Below are positions 8,721 through 37,062 of a DNA stretch of 64,000 bases, piece after piece. The notes beneath the pieces were generated by a model, which worked only from the letters and a program-made list of their open reading frames with translations, searched no databases and was not told where the DNA came from. The stretch comes from Alphaproteobacteria bacterium (GTDB lineage Bacteria > Pseudomonadota > Alphaproteobacteria > Bin95). A program made the translations under genes and the position numbers. Within the stretch, counting starts at the first letter, position 1. Each line of letters starts with the position of its first letter. Location of the stretch: NCBI GenBank assembly GCA_964291285.2, contig OZ219787.1:576001-640000 (forward strand), in the 5' to 3' direction.

Positions 8721-9586
8721 ACGGCGGTGGCGATGGTGCCGAGATTGCCTTCCGGCGTCACGGACCAGAGCGTCTGGCTGGCGCCGTCGCCGCCCGGCTT
8801 GCCGGCGACATGGAAGGGCGCGGTGTCGAACAGCGGCGCCCGGGCCTGGAAATCGTAGCGGGCCACGCGCCGTCCCGGCATCTCAGCCATGCCGAGCTCC
8901 AGCATGTGGGTCGTGGTCAGCGGCCCGTGGACGATCAGGCCCGGATAGCCCTCGACCTCGGTCACATATTTGCGGTCGTAGTGGATGCGGTGGCCGTTGA
9001 ACGTGATCGCCGAATAGCGGAACAGCATCACCGGGTCCGGCTCGATTTCCCGGATGAAGGCGTGGTCGGTCGGGGCATTGCCCGTCCTGCCGCTGTTGCC
9101 GCGGCTGTCGGCGGCTTCGGCCGGCGGGTTGTCGCGATAGACGATGTCGTGCTCTTCCTCGATGCAGAGGCCGCGCGGGCTCTCGATCCCGTAGGCAATG
9201 GTGACGATGACCAGCATGCCGGTGCGCCCGTCCTTGATCGCCACATCCTTGATGCGCGCCTTGCGGACGATCTCCTCGCCGATCAGCACGTCCTGCCGGT
9301 AGGTCGTGCGGCAGCCGCCGAACATGCGCCGGGGCAGCGGCGTCGGCGGCAGGAAGCCGCCGCGCTCGGGGTGGCCGTCCGCGCCGATGCCCGACGCCGG
9401 CACGCGCGGGTAGAAATAGCACCAGTGGCCCATCGGCCCGATGGGGTCGCCCATCTGCGGCACATCCGGCTTGTCGAGCAGCGCGGCGAGGCCGTGGATC
9501 TGCATCGGCGAGGCGAAATCGCGGCTTTCCTCGGTGTTGCCGATGGAATCGCGCAAATATTCCAGGTCCGCGGCAGTGTGGGTCAT
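8711..9586 (-). CDS. Double-hotdog (R)-specific acyl-CoA hydratase (mesaconyl-C4-CoA/itaconyl-CoA hydratase-like)
   Basis: [20 protein letters not shown] and [18 protein letters not shown]...[13 protein letters not shown] motifs. Confidence 0.8.
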
Positions 9587-10710
9587 GGCGAGAATTCCTC
9601 CCGGATCAGGGCGCCGTGTTCGTCCACCTCCGGGATCGGCCCGTATTCCCGAGGCTCTCCATCGAAATAGACCGCCGGCGCAACATGGCTGACAGGTCCG
9701 CCGGGCGTGCCGACTTCCGCGCGGCGGAGCGCCGGGTGCTCCGACAGGTCGGCCACCGTGTTCACGCTGCCGAACGCGACATCCGCCGCCGCCAGCCGGG
9801 CGCGCAGGGTCTCGCGGTCGAGCGCGCCCAGGATCCCTTCGAGCACCGCCTCGACCTCGTCGCGGTTCTCGACCCGGGCCACCTGGGTGGCGTATTTCGG
9901 CGCGGTCGCCAGGTCCGGTCGCTCCAGCACCGTCCCGGCGAAGCGCCGCCATTCGCGGTCGTTCTGGCAGGCGATCATCACCCGGTGGCCGTCGGAGGTC
10001 TCGAAGGCGCCGTAGGGCACCAGCGCCGGGTGGCGGAGCGCCATGCGCGGCCATGTCCGGCCGGCATATTCGTGCCACATCAGCGGCGCCGACATCCAGT
10101 CCGCCATCGAGGCGAACAGCGAGGCCTTGACCGCGGAGCCCCTGCCGTCGATGCCGCGCTTGATGAGCGCCTCCAGCACGGCGGCATGGCTGAACATGCC
10201 GGTCGCGATATCGCAGGCGGACACGCCGATCCGTCCGGGCTCCGCCTCCGATCCCGTCACCGACGCCACGCCGCTCTCGGCCTGCACCAGCATGTCGTAG
10301 GCCTTCATGCGGTCGTAGGGCGGCCCGGTCTCGCCATAGCCGGAAATATCGACCGTGATGAGGCGCGGATAGCGGGCGCGCAGCTCTGCGGAACCGAAAC
10401 CGGCGCGTTCGGTTGCGCCCGGCGCCAGGTTCTGTACCCAGACATCGGCGGATGCGAGGATGCGGTGGAGCAGCGCGCGGTCGTCCTCATCCTTGATGTC
10501 GATGACGAGCGACTGCTTGCCCCGGTTCAGATAGACGAAATAGGTGGAACTGCCGCGCACATAGTTGTCGTAGCCGCGCGCGAAATCGCCCTCCTTGCGT
10601 TCGAGCTTGATCACGCGCGCGCCGGCGTCCGCCAGCCGCGCCGTCAGGAAGGGCGCGGCGACGGCCTGCTCCAGGCTCACCACCAGCAACCCCTCAAGCG
10701 GTCGGTTCAT
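9583..10710 (-). CDS. CaiB/BaiF family (class III) CoA transferase
   Basis: PLEGLLVVSLEQAVAAP, GDFARGYD, NRGKQS, ISGYG, AYDMLVQAESG; 4-bp overlap with the hydratase. Confidence 0.92.
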   Translation of the reverse strand: MNRPLEGLLVVSLEQAVAAPFLTARLADAGARVIKLERKEGDFARGYDNYVRGSSTYFVYLNRGKQSLVIDIKDEDDRALLHRILASADVWVQNLAPGATERAGFGSAELRARYPRLITVDISGYGETGPPYDRMKAYDMLVQAESGVASVTGSEAEPGRIGVSACDIATGMFSHAAVLEALIKRGIDGRGSAVKASLFASMADWMSAPLMWHEYAGRTWPRMALRHPALVPYGAFETSDGHRVMIACQNDREWRRFAGTVLERPDLATAPKYATQVARVENRDEVEAVLEGILGALDRETLRARLAAADVAFGSVNTVADLSEHPALRRAEVGTPGGPVSHVAPAVYFDGEPREYGPIPEVDEHGALIREEFSP

Positions 10711-10816
10711 GTCGGCCCCTCCCTACCGGCGCAAACGCAGGATAGGCAGTCCCGCCCCGCCTGCAAACCGGCGCGCAGGCCGCCGGTCCGGCTGCGCCGC
10801 GCCCTGCAACCGATTC

Positions 10817-10844
10817 GCCGCCCCGGACCGCAGTCCGGGGCGGC
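10817..10844. repeat. Perfect 12-bp GC-rich hairpin (REP-like or terminator-like) just past the HTH gene stop
   Basis: GCCGCCCCGGAC-CGCA-GTCCGGGGCGGC. Confidence 0.7.
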
Positions 10845-10866
10845 AAGGAGGTACGGAGCGGACCGG

Positions 10867-11310
10867 CTACCCGGAAGGAGGGAACACGGGGGCCTTCCAC
10901 CGCTTCCGCCTGCGGCGCACCGCGAGGCGGCGGCTGCGCTCCATGCGGTGGCGCCGGAGGAATCTGCACAAGGTCGGGCCGGAGAGCCGCACGCCCTCGG
11001 CGGCCAGCGCCTCGCTCAGCGCCCGGCTGGACAGTTCGGGCCGCGCCTCAAGGATACGGACGATCCGCTCGCGCTCCGCCTCCACCCGCGAGGGGCGCCC
11101 GCCGCGCGCGTCCTCCCGCACATGCCCGCGCTCGCGAAACCGTCTCACCCAGCGGCTGACGCTCGTGGCGGCCAGCCCGAACCGCGCCGCCGCCGCCTTG
11201 ACGCTCAGGCCCTCTTCCAGCACCGCCGCCACCGCCCGGCCCCGCAGTTGCGCGGCGACCGCCCGGCCCCGCCGGGACTCCGTCAGCGCACCTTCCGGTT
11301 CGTTCGCCAT
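10867..11310 (-). CDS. Stand-alone IS630/Tc1-like (paired-like) double HTH protein, no DDE domain (copy 1)
   Basis: LRGRAVAAVLEEGLSVKAAAARFGLAATSVSRWVRRFRERGHV..GG..RERIVRILEARP..LAAEG..TLCRFLRRH; purine-rich RBS; only ~157 bp to the next gene downstream. Confidence 0.8.
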   Translation of the reverse strand: MANEPEGALTESRRGRAVAAQLRGRAVAAVLEEGLSVKAAAARFGLAATSVSRWVRRFRERGHVREDARGGRPSRVEAERERIVRILEARPELSSRALSEALAAEGVRLSGPTLCRFLRRHRMERSRRLAVRRRRKRWKAPVFPPSG

Positions 11311-11524
11311 CCTTCCCGCTCCTCTCCGACTGCGCCCGCCATGGGCCAACTCCACCGACAGAACGGCGCCCCGCCGCCGTTTTTGCGCGCGCATCTCCCC
11401 CGTCTACCGCCCGGCCCCCGGCCGCCGGCAGTTTCTTTCCAAATTCGTGCCGGAAGGGACGCCGCCATGCGCCCGATCCGATAGCCCGTCAGGTCATCCC
11501 TCGCTCGACTTCCTGCTTTGCGAT

Positions 11525-11559
11525 GGAACATATATAGAATATATGGGGATAAAGTCAAG
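11525..11559 (-). promoter_or_regulatory. sigma70 promoter overlapped by a LexA (SOS) box, copy 1
   Basis: Minus strand CTTGAC-N16-CTATAT; GAAC-ATATATA-GAAT at 11526-11540 resembles the alphaproteobacterial GAAC-N7-GAAC box. Confidence 0.7.
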
Positions 11560-11573
11560 GCCGGAGACGCCGC

Positions 11574-11634
11574 CCCTTCGACAGGCTCAGGGCAGGCTCC
11601 TCCGCCATGCCCGGAACAAGGCCGGGCGTGGCGG
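11574..11634. repeat. REP-like elements: CCCTTCGACAGGCTCAGG motif and a 13-bp hairpin
   Basis: ccccttcgacaggctcagggcaggctc, then ccgccatgcccgg-N7-ccgggcgtggcgg (11602-11634, one G-U pair). Confidence 0.55.
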
Positions 11635-11679
11635 GAAGAAGACAGGGGCCCGCATGGAGACCGCTGGCGCAAACACCCG

Positions 11680-12455
11680 CTACCCCTTGCGCCCCCGCAG
11701 GTCCGAAACGGCGACGGAACGCGCCCTCGCGCGGCATTCCCTGTATGCCGTCCTGCTTCCCTTACCGCCGCCAAAGCGCTCCCGGCAGTCCCTCTCCAGA
11801 CGCCTCTTTTCCATAATCAGCAGGTTGTTGTCTCCGAGCGAGCCGCAAACGCCGTCTCCGTTCCAGCCTTTGCCGCCCCCGGTTGCCGGATGCCCGATGC
11901 AACTCTCCTCAACCTGCTTGCCCGCTCGCCAGTTGCAGGTGACGCCCCTGCCGTTTTTCCACCCGTATGTGCCCCGGCCGTGGAAACGACTGTCCCTGAA
12001 CTGCCCGATATAGCGGGCGCCGTTCCCGCCGATATACACTCCACAACCCTGTATCCCGCGAGGACCGAAATCCCTGTCGCTGGCATAAATGTCGCCATTT
12101 GCCAGATACAGCCTTCCCTTTCCGCGAATTTCCCCATCGACGAACCAGCCTTCGTAGCGGTCGCCGGCAGCGGCCTTGCGCCGGGCTGCGCGCTGACCTT
12201 CGCCGGGTCGGACAGGACAGCGGCGAATGTCGAGGAGCCGCGCTCGTAGTCCCGCTGCCTCGTATCGAGATTGAGGGAACGCCTGCCGGTGACATCGTCC
12301 ACCTTCGTCAAGGCGCCGGCCGTCTCGTGAAGAAGCGTGTCGGTCGCCTTGGCGGCTTCCCCGACCGTCGAGGCAAATTCCCCAATGCCTTCGCAGGCGG
12401 AAAGCGCAAGAACGGCAAGCCCGGCAAGCATCGCCCGGGATATCCGGCAAACCAT
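11680..12455 (-). pseudogene. Frameshifted lipoprotein / MORN-repeat gene
   Basis: Lipobox N-terminus (LALSAC) in one frame; MORN repeats (GDRYEGWFVDGEIRGKG, GARYIGQFRDSRFHGRG) in another; frame switch near 12160-12185. Confidence 0.65.
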
Positions 12456-12483
12456 GGAATCCCCCTCCAGAAAGCCCCTCGGC

Positions 12484-13980
12484 CTAGCGCCCCCACCTCT
12501 TGCGCTGCTTCACGTTCCTGTCCGTGAGGGTGCCGCAGACGCCTTCGCCCCGGTAGCGCGCGCCGATGCCCGTCACCCGGTGGGCCTTGCAGCTTTCCAC
12601 GACCCGCTGGCCGTCCCGCCAGTCGCAGGTGGCCGCCACGCCCTCGGCCCACTCATAGGTGCCCCGGCCATGGAAGCGGCCGTCGCGGAACTGCCCCAGA
12701 TAGCGGTCTCCGTTCGCGCGGACATAGAGGCCGCAGCCCTGGAAGCCCCGGCTGTCGAACTCGCCGTCGCCGCCATAGACGTCGCCATTGGCGAGATACA
12801 TCGTGCCGCGCCCGCGAATCCCGCCGTCGGCGAACTCGCCCACATAGCGGTCCCCGTTGGCGAAGGTGAGGACGCCCCGTCCGTGCGGCCTGCCATCCAT
12901 GTGCTGGCCTTCATATTTCGCCTCTTCGCGGTCCGCCCCCTCCGGAGCCGCCGCTGCTGCCTTCTGTCCTTCCCCGCGCCCCGCCGCGCCGGCCGGAACC
13001 GGCAGGGCGCCGCGCCAGGACGCCGTGCGGAAACAGACGGCCGCGGCCCGGCCGGGAAACGTTCCGTCCGCCGGATGCTCGACACAGCTTCCCTCGACCT
13101 CCGCATCGCCCCGCCATTCACAGGTCTTCATGAGCCCGTCCGGCCAGGCGTAGCTGCCGAGGCCGTGAAATCTGTCGCGCCGGAACTCTCCGGCGTAATA
13201 CTCCCCATTGGCCCAGATATAGGCTCCGCATCCGTGGAATTGGTCATCGCGGACGTCGCCGACATAGCGGTTTCCGTCCGCCATCGTCCAGTCGCCGAAT
13301 CCGTAAAATCTCCCGTCCCTGAAATCCCCCTCGTAACGTTCGCCCCCGGGGCTGTCGTAGATGCCTTTTCCGTGCATCTTCCCGTCGCGCACTTCCCCGA
13401 TATAGCGGTCCCCGTTCGCCATGGACGAGACGGCGTTGCCCTGGAATTTTCCATCCAGGAAATCGCCGTCATAACGCTCGCCGTCAGGCCAGAAATATAC
13501 GCCCCGTCCATGGAACTTCCCGTTCCGGAACGCGCCGACATAGCGGTGGCCGTCGGGCGAATGCCACTCGCCCTGTCCGTCGGCGACGCCTTTTCGCCTC
13601 TGGCCCCGGAATTCCGGCGCCGCTTCGCCTCCCCCCGCCGTTCGCGGCGCCGGACGCGGCAGCGGGACGCCCAGCGCCGTCCGCCGCGGCAGGTCGGGCT
13701 TCGCTTCCACGACCGGCTCGATCTTTTCGGGATCTACGGGAGCCGTGGTCAAAATCCGGGCCTGCCGGTCGCGCTCGACCTGTTTGGTCCTGTGATGGAC
13801 GGCGTGTTTCCGGGCGGCCTTTCCCGCCTTCGCCACCGGCGCCTTTTTCTCCTGGAACTGGGCGCGCAGACCAGACCCGAATTTGTCGAAATCAGACCCG
13901 ATTTTCCGGGCCGCCTCGCAGGAAGAAAGCACGAAAACCACGAGGCAAGCAGCGAGGACCCTGACTGCGAGGTTTTTCAT
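12484..13980 (-). CDS. MORN-repeat lipoprotein
   Basis: Lipobox LSSC; more than ten G-x-R-Y-x-G-x-F-x-DG-x-x-HG-x-G repeats. Confidence 0.88.
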   Translation of the reverse strand: MKNLAVRVLAACLVVFVLSSCEAARKIGSDFDKFGSGLRAQFQEKKAPVAKAGKAARKHAVHHRTKQVERDRQARILTTAPVDPEKIEPVVEAKPDLPRRTALGVPLPRPAPRTAGGGEAAPEFRGQRRKGVADGQGEWHSPDGHRYVGAFRNGKFHGRGVYFWPDGERYDGDFLDGKFQGNAVSSMANGDRYIGEVRDGKMHGKGIYDSPGGERYEGDFRDGRFYGFGDWTMADGNRYVGDVRDDQFHGCGAYIWANGEYYAGEFRRDRFHGLGSYAWPDGLMKTCEWRGDAEVEGSCVEHPADGTFPGRAAAVCFRTASWRGALPVPAGAAGRGEGQKAAAAAPEGADREEAKYEGQHMDGRPHGRGVLTFANGDRYVGEFADGGIRGRGTMYLANGDVYGGDGEFDSRGFQGCGLYVRANGDRYLGQFRDGRFHGRGTYEWAEGVAATCDWRDGQRVVESCKAHRVTGIGARYRGEGVCGTLTDRNVKQRKRWGR

Positions 13981-22969: not shown

Positions 22970-23084
22970 CCGCGCGGTCCCGCCCGGCCCACGCGCCTTG
23001 ACCCCGAAATGGCGGGGTGCCACCGTCCGGCGTCGATGCGGGAGCCAAACACACCGGCTCGCAAAACAGAGGGAGTACCCGAAC

Positions 23085-24233
23085 ATGAGAAGAACCGCGA
23101 CGTTTCTTGCCGCGCTTGCCGCCGCCGCAATGGCGGGCGGTTCCGCCGGCCATGCCGGAGAGGTCAAACTGCCGGACACGCTCGTGACCACGGCCTACAA
23201 CACGGGCACGACCGGCTACAGCCAGATGATCGCCGTCGGCGGCATGCTGAAGAAGCGCTACAACGTCAATCTCCGCGTGCTGCCCGGCAAGAACGACGTG
23301 GCGCGGCTCGCGCCCGTGAAAGCCGGCAAGGCCCAGTTCACCGCGACCGGCTCCGACAGCGTCTACGCGCAGGAGGCGGTCTTCGCGTTCGGCGGTGAAA
23401 AATGGGGGCCGTCGCCCGTCCGTCTTCTCATGCTCAACCGCGGCAAGGGCTGCACGACCTTCGCCGTCGCGAAAGACGTGGGCGTGAAGACCATGGCGGA
23501 CCTCAAGGGCAAGCGTATCGGCTGGGTGCGGGGCTCGCCTGCGCTGCAGAAGGCCGTCGAGGCGCTGCTCGGCTTCGCTGACCTGACCATGAACGACGTG
23601 CAGCTGGTCGAGGTCGGCGGCTGGGCGGCCTCGATCAACGGCATCATCGACGGCGACATCGACGCCTCGATCACCTCGTCGAGCTCGACCTTCATGAAGA
23701 AGATGGAAGCGAGCCCGCGCGGCGTCTACCACCCGCCGCTGCCGCACTCCGACAGCGAGGGCTGGGCGCGCGTGCAGAACGTCGTGCCCTGGTACGTGCA
23801 GGGCATCTGCACGCACGGCCCCGGCGTGCCGGGCGGAAGCCAGGAATCCATCGCCAGCATCTATCCCATCCTGATCGGCACCACGGCGGTCTCCGATGAG
23901 GTCGCCTACAGCCTGACCAAGGCGATGGTGACGCATTTCGACGACTACAAGGACGGCGCGCCGGCGGCGGACGGCTGGGCGCTGGACCGCCAGCTTTACA
24001 ACTTCTACCTGCCGATGCATCCGGGCTCCATCGCCTTCTACAAGGAGGCGGGCACCTGGACCGCCGAGGGCCAGGCGAACCAGGAGGACAAGCTGCGCCG
24101 CCAGGATGTCCTGAAGACGGCGTGGGACGCCCATGTGGCGAGCGGGCCCGCCGACTTCGTGAAGGAATGGCAGGCGTCCAGGGCGAAGGCGCTGAGCGAC
24201 GCCGGGTTCGAGCCGGTCTTCACCACCTGGTAA
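23085..24233 (+). CDS. TAXI-family TRAP transporter solute-binding protein
   Basis: Signal peptide, TAYNTGTTGY, DLKGKRIGW, PMHPGSIAFYKEAG. Confidence 0.85.
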   Translation: MRRTATFLAALAAAAMAGGSAGHAGEVKLPDTLVTTAYNTGTTGYSQMIAVGGMLKKRYNVNLRVLPGKNDVARLAPVKAGKAQFTATGSDSVYAQEAVFAFGGEKWGPSPVRLLMLNRGKGCTTFAVAKDVGVKTMADLKGKRIGWVRGSPALQKAVEALLGFADLTMNDVQLVEVGGWAASINGIIDGDIDASITSSSSTFMKKMEASPRGVYHPPLPHSDSEGWARVQNVVPWYVQGICTHGPGVPGGSQESIASIYPILIGTTAVSDEVAYSLTKAMVTHFDDYKDGAPAADGWALDRQLYNFYLPMHPGSIAFYKEAGTWTAEGQANQEDKLRRQDVLKTAWDAHVASGPADFVKEWQASRAKALSDAGFEPVFTTW

Positions 24234-35073: not shown

Positions 35074-35302
35074 ACGATGCCCGATGCTTGTTCGTACTGT
35101 CAGAAATAACTTTCTATAGAACTCGATTTCTGGCGGTCTGCGATACAACGGAGCGGCAAGAAGGAAGCGGCATCCGCGGCATCGCCCTCGCCCCCGTCCC
35201 CTGAGCAACCGGATAGATGGGTAACAGTTTTCTGTGTTCGTTCGGTCTCCGCCCGGCCGGCGGACAAAGCCCGGCAACCGTCCGCGCAAGCCGCGAGGCC
35301 CT

Positions 35303-35351
35303 CTCCCGCCTGCGCGGGGGCAGACCTCCGGCACCTCCCACCAGGCGGGAG
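35303..35351. repeat. Inverted repeat (REP-like) downstream of HTH copy 2
   Basis: CTCCCGCCTG (35303-35312) and CAGGCGGGAG (35342-35351). Confidence 0.55.
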
Positions 35352-35392
35352 GGTAGTTAGAGGGGAAGGAGGAAGAAGCGGGAGCGGCGCCG

Positions 35393-35833
35393 CTACCGTT
35401 CGGTCCACCGCTTCCACTGCTTCCGCCGGGGGCGGGCGATGCGGCGGGTGCGCTCCAGGCCGTGGCGCTTCAGGAAATTCTGCACTGTGGCCGCGTGGAA
35501 CGGGAACCCCTCCGCGGCGAGCGCGTCGCGCAGTTCGTACATGGAAATCGCCGGGCGCGCCTCAAGGATGCGGAAAATGCGCTCCCGGTGCGGCTCGATC
35601 CGCGAGGCACTGCCGCCCATGCGCTTGCGCCGTACATGGCCCTGCTCGCGGAAGCGCTGCAGCCAGCGGCAGACGCTGGACACCGCCAGCCCGAACCGCC
35701 GGGCGGCGGCCGACGCGCTCATGCCCTCCTCCACCACCGCCATGACCGCCCGGCTCCGCAGCTCCTCGCCGACCGGGCGGCCTCGCCCCGGCCGCCGCAG
35801 CGCGCCCGCCGGTCCGCTCATCGATCCATCCAT
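35393..35833 (-). CDS. Stand-alone IS630/Tc1-like (paired-like) double HTH protein, no DDE domain (copy 2)
   Basis: GRPVGEELRSRAVMAVVEEGMSASAAARRFGLAVSSVCRWLQRFREQGHV..MGGS..PAISMYELRDALAAEG..TVQNFLKRHG; AAGGAGG RBS. Confidence 0.82.
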   Translation of the reverse strand: MDGSMSGPAGALRRPGRGRPVGEELRSRAVMAVVEEGMSASAAARRFGLAVSSVCRWLQRFREQGHVRRKRMGGSASRIEPHRERIFRILEARPAISMYELRDALAAEGFPFHAATVQNFLKRHGLERTRRIARPRRKQWKRWTER

Positions 35834-35926
35834 CTTCGTGCTTCCTCCTTGTTCCGCCGCGCCCGCGCGACTTCCATCAACGTCCCAACCCGAACCCGAT
35901 TTCCCGGCTCTCCGGCCGCCCAGCCG

Positions 35927-36021
35927 GACCGCGACAAACGGCAGCGGACGACAGCGAATGTTGCAGCCGGAATGAGCGTCCCCGACCCCTCCGGCCACCC
36001 AGGCAGACCGCGACAAACGGC
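35927..36021. repeat. 16-nt direct repeat in the leader of HTH copy 2
   Basis: GACCGCGACAAACGGC at 35927-35942 and 36006-36021. Confidence 0.8.
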
Positions 36022-36155
36022 CGCCGGCGCGCGCGGCCGGGTTTGCCGCCGCGGGGTGGCGGGTTCGCGGCAGAGGTCCGGAAAAGGCGGCTTGCGCGGC
36101 TGCGCCAGCCCATCAGGTCCAGATCATGGCCCTTTCACTCCGTCAGGGATGTAAA

Positions 36156-36190
36156 GGAACATATATAGAACCAATGGGAGGAATGTCAAG
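36156..36190 (-). promoter_or_regulatory. sigma70 promoter overlapped by a LexA (SOS) box, copy 2
   Basis: Minus strand CTTGAC-N16-CTATAT with a perfect TTGACA; exact GAAC-ATATATA-GAAC at 36157-36171. Confidence 0.78.
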
Positions 36191-36273
36191 CGCATTGCCG
36201 CCGCCCCGGCCGCCCCGTAGCATGGAAACGGACGCCGCCGCCCCGACCGGCAGACCCCGAGGAGACGACGCAT

Positions 36274-37062
36274 ATGCCCTTTCTCACCGAGCAGCACGGC
36301 CATGTCGTGACGGCGACGCTCAGCCGCCCCGAGGCCCGCAACGCCTGGGGGCAGGACTTCTATGACGGCATCGCCGAGTGCTTTCCCCGCTGGGCGGACG
36401 ACGACGGCGTGCGCGCGGTGGTGGTGACCGGCGACGAGGACGGGCGCGCCTTCTCGGCCGGGGCCAACCTGAAGGACCCGAACACCCATGCGATGCCGCC
36501 GGTTGCCGAGTTCGTCAAGAATTTGTCGAAGCGGGAGCGTTTTCCGTTCGACGTCTTCATGGACTTCCCGAAGCCGATCGTCGCCGCGGTCAACGGCTAC
36601 GCCATCGGGATCGGCTGCATCCTGACCTTCTGCTGCGACCTGGTCGTGGCGAGCGACCGGGCGGAGTGGCGGCTGCCGCAGACCGCGCTCGGCATCCTGC
36701 CCGCATACGGCGGCTCCGTGCGCCTGGCGCGGCTCGTCGGCAAGGGCCTCGCCATGCGGCTTGCCATGGGCTTCCCGCTCGACGGCGAAGAAGCGCACCG
36801 CATCGGCCTCGCCCAGTGGCTGGTTCCGCACGGGGAGCTGATGGGCAAGGCGATGGACGTGGCCGGCCATGTCGCCGCGCTGCCGCCGCTGGCCGTCCGG
36901 CTCACCAAGGAATCGCTCAACCGCGGCATGGACATCCCGAACCTCAAGGACGCCGCCCTCGTCGACCTCTACCGCTTCATGACGCTGGAATTGACCGAGG
37001 ACAAGGAAGAGGCCCACAGCGCCTGGCGGGAACGGCGCACGCCGAACGTCCGGGGCGTCTGA
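36274..37062 (+). CDS. Enoyl-CoA hydratase/isomerase family protein
   Basis: RPEARNA, AFSAGANL, KPIVAAVNGYAIG, LGILP. Confidence 0.9.
   Translation: MPFLTEQHGHVVTATLSRPEARNAWGQDFYDGIAECFPRWADDDGVRAVVVTGDEDGRAFSAGANLKDPNTHAMPPVAEFVKNLSKRERFPFDVFMDFPKPIVAAVNGYAIGIGCILTFCCDLVVASDRAEWRLPQTALGILPAYGGSVRLARLVGKGLAMRLAMGFPLDGEEAHRIGLAQWLVPHGELMGKAMDVAGHVAALPPLAVRLTKESLNRGMDIPNLKDAALVDLYRFMTLELTEDKEEAHSAWRERRTPNVRGV

Follow-up and report, generated by a model that had tools for sequence, protein, structure and literature searches.

A genus-restricted family of transposase-derived, paired-like DNA-binding proteins, probably under LexA control, in uncultured Alphaproteobacteria

Why would a bacterial genome keep small genes that encode the DNA-binding part of a transposase without its catalytic part, most of them behind a promoter that looks like an SOS promoter? 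The question is raised by a stretch of 64,000 nt from an uncultured alphaproteobacterium (G000:C3:576001-640000; "the window" below means this whole stretch), taken from a 6.13 Mb genome, G000, with 68% G+C in five contigs. In the window, two open reading frames (ORFs) on the minus strand, copy 1 and copy 2, encode proteins that consist of a helix-turn-helix (HTH) region and a basic tail. A first-pass annotation of the window had described them as LexA-repressed, domesticated relatives of the IS630/Tc1 transposases, present in two dispersed cassettes. We find that the two window genes are 2 of about 45 HTH-only paralogues in the genome. From sequence analysis we regard it as moderately probable that they represent a family confined to the genus, whose members are paired-like DNA-binding proteins derived from a transposase and encoded on self-contained cassettes, and that most of these are repressed by LexA and co-induced by DNA damage. 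In this genus the family as a whole is probably turned on when DNA is damaged. The ORFs and their promoter elements are as follows.

35396..35833, minus strand: copy 2 ORF, an HTH-only paired-like protein of 146 aa (stop codon 35395-35393)
35843-35850, minus strand: copy 2 ribosome binding site (RBS) aaggagga, read from the sequence
36157..36171, minus strand: copy 2 GTTC-TATATAT-GTTC, an exact LexA-type direct repeat over the AT-rich -10 region
36184..36189, minus strand: copy 2 -35-like TTGACA, read from the sequence (cTTGACa across 64 aligned modules)
10870..11310, minus strand: copy 1 ORF, an HTH-only paired-like protein of 147 aa (stop codon 10869-10867)
11526..11540, minus strand: copy 1 ATTC-TATATAT-GTTC, which differs from the LexA-type repeat at one position
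11553..11558, minus strand: copy 1 -35-like TTGACT, read from the sequence and from the 64-module alignment

The two proteins align without gaps at 66/114 identical residues (BLASTP, 58%, E 4e-31), close to the 69/118 counted earlier by hand, and both end in the basic tail ER.RR.A..RR..WK that had been pointed out. Their upstream DNA otherwise aligns poorly, again as described. What they share there is the 15-mer TTCTATATATGTTCC, exact on the minus strand at 11525-11539 and 36156-36170 (0.01 expected; 0/100 shuffles reach two occurrences), together with ATGGG at +18 and GTCAAG at +29, which we could read in both copies. A profile search places a DDE_3 match at neither locus, in agreement with the earlier statement that no catalytic ORF follows.

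The count of two cassettes turned out to be far too low. Searching the genome with copy 2 by tblastn gave 46 matches, 37 of them at 47-100% identity. One row was a second stretch inside the same frame and was dropped, leaving 45 frames. All except C3:2006590 (44/45) stop 0-36 residues past the match; in that locus the open frame continues through a tandem repeat of the HTH domain, without a DDE match. Forty-two of the 45 frames are intact, two have an internal stop and one is truncated. ORFs for which a start could be chosen measure 134-160 aa and have GGAGG-type RBSs, while a distant tandem-repeat member reads 232 aa. The genome holds 32 DDE_3 matches, among them those of the multi-copy IS630 described below, and none is inside a family locus. 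The paralogues are old, being only 47-75% identical to each other, and seven more distant members (36-45% identity) have MPKAYSPDLR-type N-termini.

The first-pass annotation had proposed looking for further HTH-only copies in the genome and in relatives, and a search of 40 related genomes revealed a genus-wide family of roughly 20-45 copies per genome. Of the 16 other genomes of the genus, 14 yield 2-41 matches and two yield nothing; beyond the genus, 1-3 weak matches occur in 4 of 24 genomes. A separate search for related loci gave five, in records that match genomes already covered. Public homologues, of 80-256 aa by one count and mostly 110-180 (up to 214) by another, come from metagenome-assembled "Alphaproteobacteria bacterium" records under no other names than "helix-turn-helix domain-containing protein" or "transposase". 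A profile search over 1.84 billion representatives returned 7 matches at E <= 1e-30 and 842 at E <= 1e-10; leaving aside long multi-stretch matches, which we read as compositional, most are 110-170 aa long. PADLOC reports weak Csa3/CARF HTH matches only (E above 5e-4), and the PHROGs matches are N-terminal parts of transposase families.

The paired-like character of the protein is supported by several methods. Both copies score above the Pfam cut-offs for HTH_23 and HTH_28, and copy 1 also for HTH_32. Copy 2 reaches 31.1 bits against a cut-off of 22 with the Pfam PAX model, a match that copy 1 does not attain even at E 0.1, and HTH_Tnp_Tc3_2 and HTH_Tnp_IS630 stay below their cut-offs. A profile of 67 sequences, a set biased toward copy 2 relatives, finds as its best PDB match the Prd paired domain (1pdn, E 1.3e-5), which it covers over both subdomains at positions 18-111; it also matches Pax8, Pax5, Pax6, the PAI and RED pieces of Sleeping Beauty, and SETMAR. 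In the AlphaFold model (AF2; pLDDT 73.7, pTM 0.42) two three-helix bundles, with helices at 23-34, 40-47 and 51-64 and at 80-92, 98-107 and 114-124, are joined by a poorly predicted GGS... linker and followed by the basic tail. In a Foldseek search Pax5, Pax6 and Prd come out on top (E about 1e-3, probability 1.00), with SETMAR and Mos1 behind them. Across the 67 sequences, variation within the folded core peaks at positions 50-52, 55, 56 and 59, where the first recognition helix begins, and positions 116-124, in the second recognition helix, are nearly fixed.

The more precise label "IS630-derived" holds as the likely origin; as an exclusive assignment it does not. In NCBIfam the first ~120 positions align to the IS481 model (E 1.4e-14) and to the IS630 model (E 5.4e-14; positions 3-120), both far under the cut-offs. 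The IS481 alignment takes in the first 123 of 284 model positions, without the catalytic part, at 54 bits against a cut-off of 224. Two distant representatives, P0252 and P0241, pass the cut-off of the IS630 model. We therefore describe the protein as the bipartite, PAI+RED-like HTH of a transposase plus a basic tail, with an IS630/Tc1-like source likely and an IS481-like source as the alternative.

What suggests a link between this family and the SOS response is its promoter. As the first-pass annotation had recognized, the conserved box has the form of the alphaproteobacterial LexA-type direct repeat and overlaps the -10 region, and we find the same motif in front of the lexA gene of the genome. 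We aligned 64 promoter modules from seven genomes. Their consensus reads cTTGACa at -18..-13, a T-rich stretch at -3..-1, then GTTC, TATATAT and GTTC, with the first half-site kept as G58 T61 T61 C63 and the second as G48 T60 T50 C45 of the 64. Many copies share both the box and its spacing to the -35 element, which the first-pass annotation had named as a sign of support. Because both GTTC blocks fall outside the -10 hexamer, promoter function alone is insufficient to account for their conservation.

The genome-wide distribution of the motif points in the same direction. Exact GTTC-N7-GTTC occurs 111 times in the genome, near the number expected by chance, but with an AT-rich spacer it is found at 20 sites, 10 of which precede family members, and for TTC[TA]7GTTC the proportion is 12 of 16. 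The other boxes with an AT spacer include that of lexA and sites that adjoin genes for SRAP, MmcB-like, Peptidase_S24 and N6_N4 DNA methylase proteins (Pfam), all of them exact. The lexA box, GAACCAATATAGAAC, lies 54 nt before the ATG and is, in reverse complement, the box of the paralogue C3:1818856; at recA the motif is GTTC-N7-ATTC, with one mismatch. The sequence GTTCN7GTTC is given as the SOS box of Caulobacter in Table 1 of a review (PMC9578287). To cover other species we took 40 loci from six other genomes by match rank and not by box: the core box is present with at most one mismatch in 26 and exactly in 9, and 37/40 hold the module by a looser criterion. In the seven distant members of G000 a similar repeat, ATTC/GTTC-N7-GTTC, stands only 17-70 nt ahead of the ORF, with a TTTACA-like -35 on one side of it and a TCTAAT-like -10 on the other.

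Several observations weigh against LexA control of a family that serves the host. The second half-site is often GTTT, ATTC or GTCT, and the box is exact in only 9 of the 40 loci. In about 12 of the 37 closer paralogues the module is missing or is separated from the ORF by an insertion sequence (IS). Inheritance accounts for part of the conservation of the box, since the paralogues arose by whole-cassette copying. A strict sigma-70 consensus scan calls no promoter at either window locus because the -10 candidates lack the final T; we take the AT-rich stretch of the box to match the alphaproteobacterial -10. No recurrent partner gene occurs within 4 kb of the 45 loci beyond overlapping frames; a CoA-transferase family is found near 5 of the 45, at no fixed position. 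LexA binding, induction and the DNA targets are all deduced from the genomes of uncultured organisms. Three further points belong to the same side of the balance, namely the variation in copy number, the level of constraint and the insertion polymorphism, and these bear also on a selfish origin.

Such an origin would make the cassettes non-autonomous remnants of an extinct or trans-acting IS that had an SOS-controlled promoter and an ORF-A-like HTH protein to regulate or target transposition; the copies would persist and spread parasitically, with no function for the host. We give this explanation a modest chance. Within this single genus copy number spans 0 to 43, and the genome abounds in IS, which interrupt several cassettes. 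The distant MPKAYSPDLR... members resemble an ordinary IS630 ORF-A and also have a GTTC-N7-GTTC-like repeat, and P0252 and P0241 fall among the proteins that the IS630 model accepts. On the other hand, the first-pass annotation had itself named the marks of an ordinary IS630 half-element, and the family loci and junctions showed neither a DDE partner nor a frameshift site, and neither inverted ends nor a TA duplication. The search for longer or fused homologues of the family also found none, which is weak evidence. Furthermore, old as the paralogues are, nearly all frames are intact.

Selection gives a mixed answer. Copy 2 has orthologues with 82-89% protein identity in five related genomes, where they keep their place beside the same crotonase gene (on both flanks in G007 and G014, on one flank in G012, G016 and G010). 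The ratio of non-synonymous to synonymous substitution rates (dN/dS) among these orthologues is 0.24-0.50 (Nei-Gojobori, 15 pairs), below 1, which agrees with the earlier view that the genes are not decaying and speaks against selfish remnants. For the neighbouring crotonase gene it is 0.11-0.15 (8 pairs). Constraint on the family is weak, given that its values against G000, 0.37-0.49, are three to four times that of the crotonase gene, which a selfish element would also show. Taken together, these values indicate that the family genes are under purifying but relaxed selection.

Three of the cassettes are present in some species and absent from others at otherwise conserved sites, an insertion polymorphism that fits selfish DNA as well as a host function. 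The first is that of copy 1:

10791..11670, minus strand: 880-nt segment with copy 1, absent at the same site in G007 and G009 by empty-site comparison

In G007 and G009 the flanks of this segment lie 5-10 nt apart, and in five more genomes it is missing within a larger absent stretch. Copy 1 appears to have reached the site from a diverged source, because the closest relatives of the segment are paralogues elsewhere that are ~85% identical. The second, at C3:2039293, is a 1252-nt insert with a ~38-nt imperfect target duplication (L093 1842-1879 and 3132-3169); five genomes have an empty site there, and G006 has the insert as well. The third, at C2:573275, is a 1018-nt insert with a 36-nt duplication, 31/36 identical (L112 2269-2304 and 3323-3358), empty in at least nine genomes and common to G011. 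At these last two sites the duplicated target is single-copy in the species with an empty site. We know of no IS family with a duplication of 36-38 nt. Comparison of empty and filled sites shows neither a TA duplication nor convincing terminal inverted repeats at the three junctions, and the ends of the inserts are unlike each other, all of which argues against IS-type remnants. Flanking direct repeats (blastn-short) occur at the two insertion-verified cassettes and at a few others that are REP/MITE-like (resembling repetitive extragenic palindromes or miniature inverted-repeat transposable elements), and 31 of 37 cassettes have none. Within copy 2 one 13-nt complementary pair is present and is not kept in G007. 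The copy 2 site in G006 holds 384 nt of unrelated DNA with no readable junction. One cassette occupies two different positions of the same neighbourhood in different species, as a mobile element might. It is possible that cassettes move by homology-facilitated illegitimate recombination after transfer, or alternatively by a mechanism with staggered cuts. Since the cassettes are insertion-polymorphic, a selfish or mobile component is possible also for a family that is controlled by LexA.

A second explanation accepts the promoter and questions the repressor: the box may be the operator of another protein, either the family's own products in auto- or cross-regulation, or a second S24-peptidase/HTH protein. 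The whole 17 nt including the spacer are conserved, beyond what LexA would need, the 15-mer is more uniform in the family than among the canonical SOS genes, and a separate Peptidase_S24 protein does have such a box alongside. Nevertheless we consider another repressor improbable. The lexA promoter carries GTTCTATATTGGTTC, identical to the C3:1818856 box, and the same repeat is found at the SRAP and MmcB-like genes, which are classic members of the SOS regulon. Conservation of the spacer is explained by the -10 element, and the motif equals the published alphaproteobacterial SOS box in the table cited above (PMC9578287). LexA is the repressor that we continue to favour.

Some other occurrences of the box are worth recording. 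A third exact GTTC-N7-GTTC in the window, GTTCTTCTCATGTTC at 23081-23095, lies over the start codon and RBS of a plus-strand gene whose product has a signal-peptide-like N-terminus; this one is probably a chance match. At G000:C1:958219 (L019), cTTGACatgcccctcatatGTTCGTTTTAAGTTCC stands before the N6_N4 DNA methylase gene, with promoter and box laid out as in the cassettes. At G000:C3:950064-951843 (L022), three things come in order, namely a family-type promoter with ATTCTATATATGTTC, a transposase gene of the IS1595 family (Pfam DDE_Tnp_IS1595 and Zn_ribbon_IS1595) and a family member; here either an IS has inserted within the cassette leader, or the transposase itself is box-controlled. Paralogues without the LexA-type module share another upstream motif, (C/T)TGTGGATA(A/T)CTT...CCCxGGGGT, found at C2:1422186 and C3:2197732 (~279 nt upstream) and at C1:1203867 and C3:301623 of G000. 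It contains TGTGGATAA, the reverse complement of a sequence that, by what we take to be the consensus, is DnaA-box-like.

The earlier description had left out the leader, 200-370 nt from box to ORF, which holds an invariant element, CATGACCTGA. In the window the leaders and 3' ends comprise the following.

36113..36127, minus strand: copy 2 leader element ATGATCTGGACCTGA, with the GAYCTG hexamer twice and a mini-ORF M-I-W-T-stop, preceded by a purine-rich tract
36082..36110, minus strand: copy 2 leader hairpin followed by CTTTTCC, terminator-like and weak, missed by a strict terminator scan
35910..36029, minus strand: two 41-nt direct repeats in the copy 2 leader, 79 nt apart (family D2, 85% identical)
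35302..35353, minus strand: copy 2 3' hairpin; conservation with the G007 orthologue stops near 35328
11489..11497, minus strand: copy 1 leader element ATGACCTGA
10817..10844, minus strand: copy 1 3' hairpin with a 12-bp perfect stem (inverted-repeat pair I7)

The element begins 42-49 nt past the box start in 61 of the 64 modules, ~25 nt from where transcription presumably starts. Of 59 loci examined, 55 hold the module with ATGAYYTG, and all 55 have the purine-rich tract followed by ATGACCTGA or by the GAYCTG-doubled form that copy 2 shows as ATGATCTGGACCTGA. Genome-wide we count 49 ATGAYCTGA sites, 20 in family leaders and 29 elsewhere, compared to ~25 by chance (a hand estimate). The element reads as a mini-ORF of two or four codons, with an SD-like (Shine-Dalgarno) GAGG only ~2 nt before the AUG. 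On its 3' side stands a stable hairpin of variable sequence, followed in the copy 2 clade by CTTTTCC or CTTTTTC, an arrangement that looks like a weak attenuator. Three roles are conceivable for the element: a site for protein binding, a start-stop or attenuator device, or a small-RNA seed.

That the leader RNA is itself the main product, a damage-induced small RNA or attenuator with the invariant AUGACCUGA, and that the HTH ORF is secondary or expressed by read-through, is very improbable: the element is more conserved than the box in the 55 loci and keeps its distance from it, and the hairpin with its U-run in the copy 2 clade would suit such a device, but Rfam gives no match (E up to 1, over 35200-36300), RNAalifold finds no consensus pair in 55 leader segments, the strict scan leaves the copy 2 leader without a terminator call, and the ORFs are of uniform length, lie behind strong RBSs and show dN/dS below 1. 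The RNAalifold result neither supports nor excludes structure because the MAFFT alignment is poor across the variable hairpin.

The 3' inverted repeats that had been reported are real. In copy 1 the perfect 12-nt stem pairs 10817-10828 with 10833-10844, and the copy 2 hairpin (-37.8 kcal/mol) begins 42 nt past the stop. Strong 3' hairpins follow nearly every paralogue. We rejected them as a family feature, since they share no common sequence and the G+C content of the genome is 68%, which makes them uninformative. Several genomes share a palindromic element that is REP/MITE-like (CCCTCATCCTGAGTAGCG ... GCGTATCGAAGG ... CTACTCGGGATGAGGG); we met it in the leader of the copy 2 orthologue of G007 (L007), at the flanks of G000:C1:1203867 and in L014; in G007 it lies inside a ~170-nt leader stretch that is absent from G000.

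The neighbourhood of copy 1 is also of interest. The next gene, CoA-transferase-like, lies at 9583..10710 in the same orientation (minus strand), and the 156 nt that separate it (start 10710) from copy 1 agree with the ~157 bp given before. By read-through from the cassette promoter this gene could be under the same control. Just upstream of copy 1, at 11817-13980 on the minus strand, are two lipoprotein-like ORFs with GDRYxGEFxDGxxHGxG units, MORN-like by eye; G007 and G009 have part of this stretch, which five other genomes lack.

LexA control would work as follows. In most copies the cassette runs from TTGACA and an AT-rich -10 with the overlapping GTTC-N7-GTTC, through the leader with its invariant element and hairpin and a strong RBS, to the ORF and a 3' hairpin. 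LexA bound over the -10 region would keep the family genes off, and RecA-stimulated cleavage of LexA after DNA damage would free some 20 or more paralogues together. The freed proteins may then bind DNA as sequence-specific regulators. It is conceivable that the conserved RED-like helix reads a half-site shared by all and the variable PAI-like helix a half-site specific to each paralogue. First candidate targets would be the family's own leaders, with GACCTGA plus the variable sequence next to it. The bolder version of this hypothesis is a radiated bacterial counterpart of Pax domestication, in which 20-40 LexA-released paired-like proteins recognize bipartite sites and form a damage-triggered network, carried by cassettes that duplicate 36-38 bp in a manner unlike IS630 transposition; as a whole we think it rather unlikely.

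The family resembles several known systems without matching any. Like the N-terminus of IS630/Tc1-mariner transposases (PAI/RED of Sleeping Beauty, Mos1, the DNA-binding domain of SETMAR), its protein has two three-helix HTHs, a GGS-type linker and a basic stretch. It differs from them in what is missing, the DDE domain, frameshift site, inverted ends and TA duplication, in that the IS481 model scores equally, and in that the resident IS630 is unrelated by BLAST. From IS481 transposases it differs by the absence of the rve-type integrase core, only the N-terminal HTH being aligned. The earlier suggestion that the proteins inhibit transposition by binding IS ends found no support: the resident IS630 is unrelated in sequence to the family (tblastn E 2.2 or worse) and its ends are unlike the leader element. 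That IS630 measures 1169 bp, has the slippery site GTTCAAAAAAACTTC (A7) and lies at G000:C3:199529-200697, with at least 8 further near-identical copies; the copy examined has other multi-copy repeats on both sides, the left one ~740 nt long and in at least 40 copies.

Some intact IS encode, in front of their catalytic ORF, an HTH-only product that regulates transposition; IS1 InsA and the OrfA of the IS3 family are of this kind. The family proteins are likewise small and consist of the DNA-binding part of a transposase alone, but their genes stand alone, each with its own promoter and leader. With the metazoan paired domain (Pax/Prd), which provides the best profile and fold matches, the family shares a transposase-type DNA-binding module without a catalytic domain. 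It differs in being bacterial, in having about 40 paralogues, in lacking a homeodomain and an octapeptide, and in an identity of only 22-25%.

Compared to the alphaproteobacterial SOS (LexA) regulon, the position of GTTC-N7-GTTC in the core promoter is the same as in lexA, SRAP and MmcB-like genes, and the same as reported for Caulobacter as far as the table cited above goes. The difference is that half of the best boxes of this genome belong to the family. Our literature search listed no paper describing an SOS-regulated, HTH-only, transposase-derived family, and no known SOS regulon is reported to include a multi-copy HTH family of transposase origin.

The invariant leader element and the 36-38-nt flanking duplications are problems of interest in themselves. 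Where a cassette comes to lie in front of a host gene, it also seems to bring along a strong promoter that DNA damage probably induces. Because copy 1 lies so close upstream of a CoA-transferase gene in the same orientation, the cassettes could rewire their neighbours to DNA damage. If the proposed LexA control is true, the bulk of the SOS regulon of this genus, by gene number, would be a single transposase-derived family of DNA-binding proteins, a composition not known from any characterized SOS regulon. The family would then also show clearly that a bacterium can reuse the DNA-binding module of a transposase without catalysis, in parallel to Pax and with amplification to dozens of paralogues.

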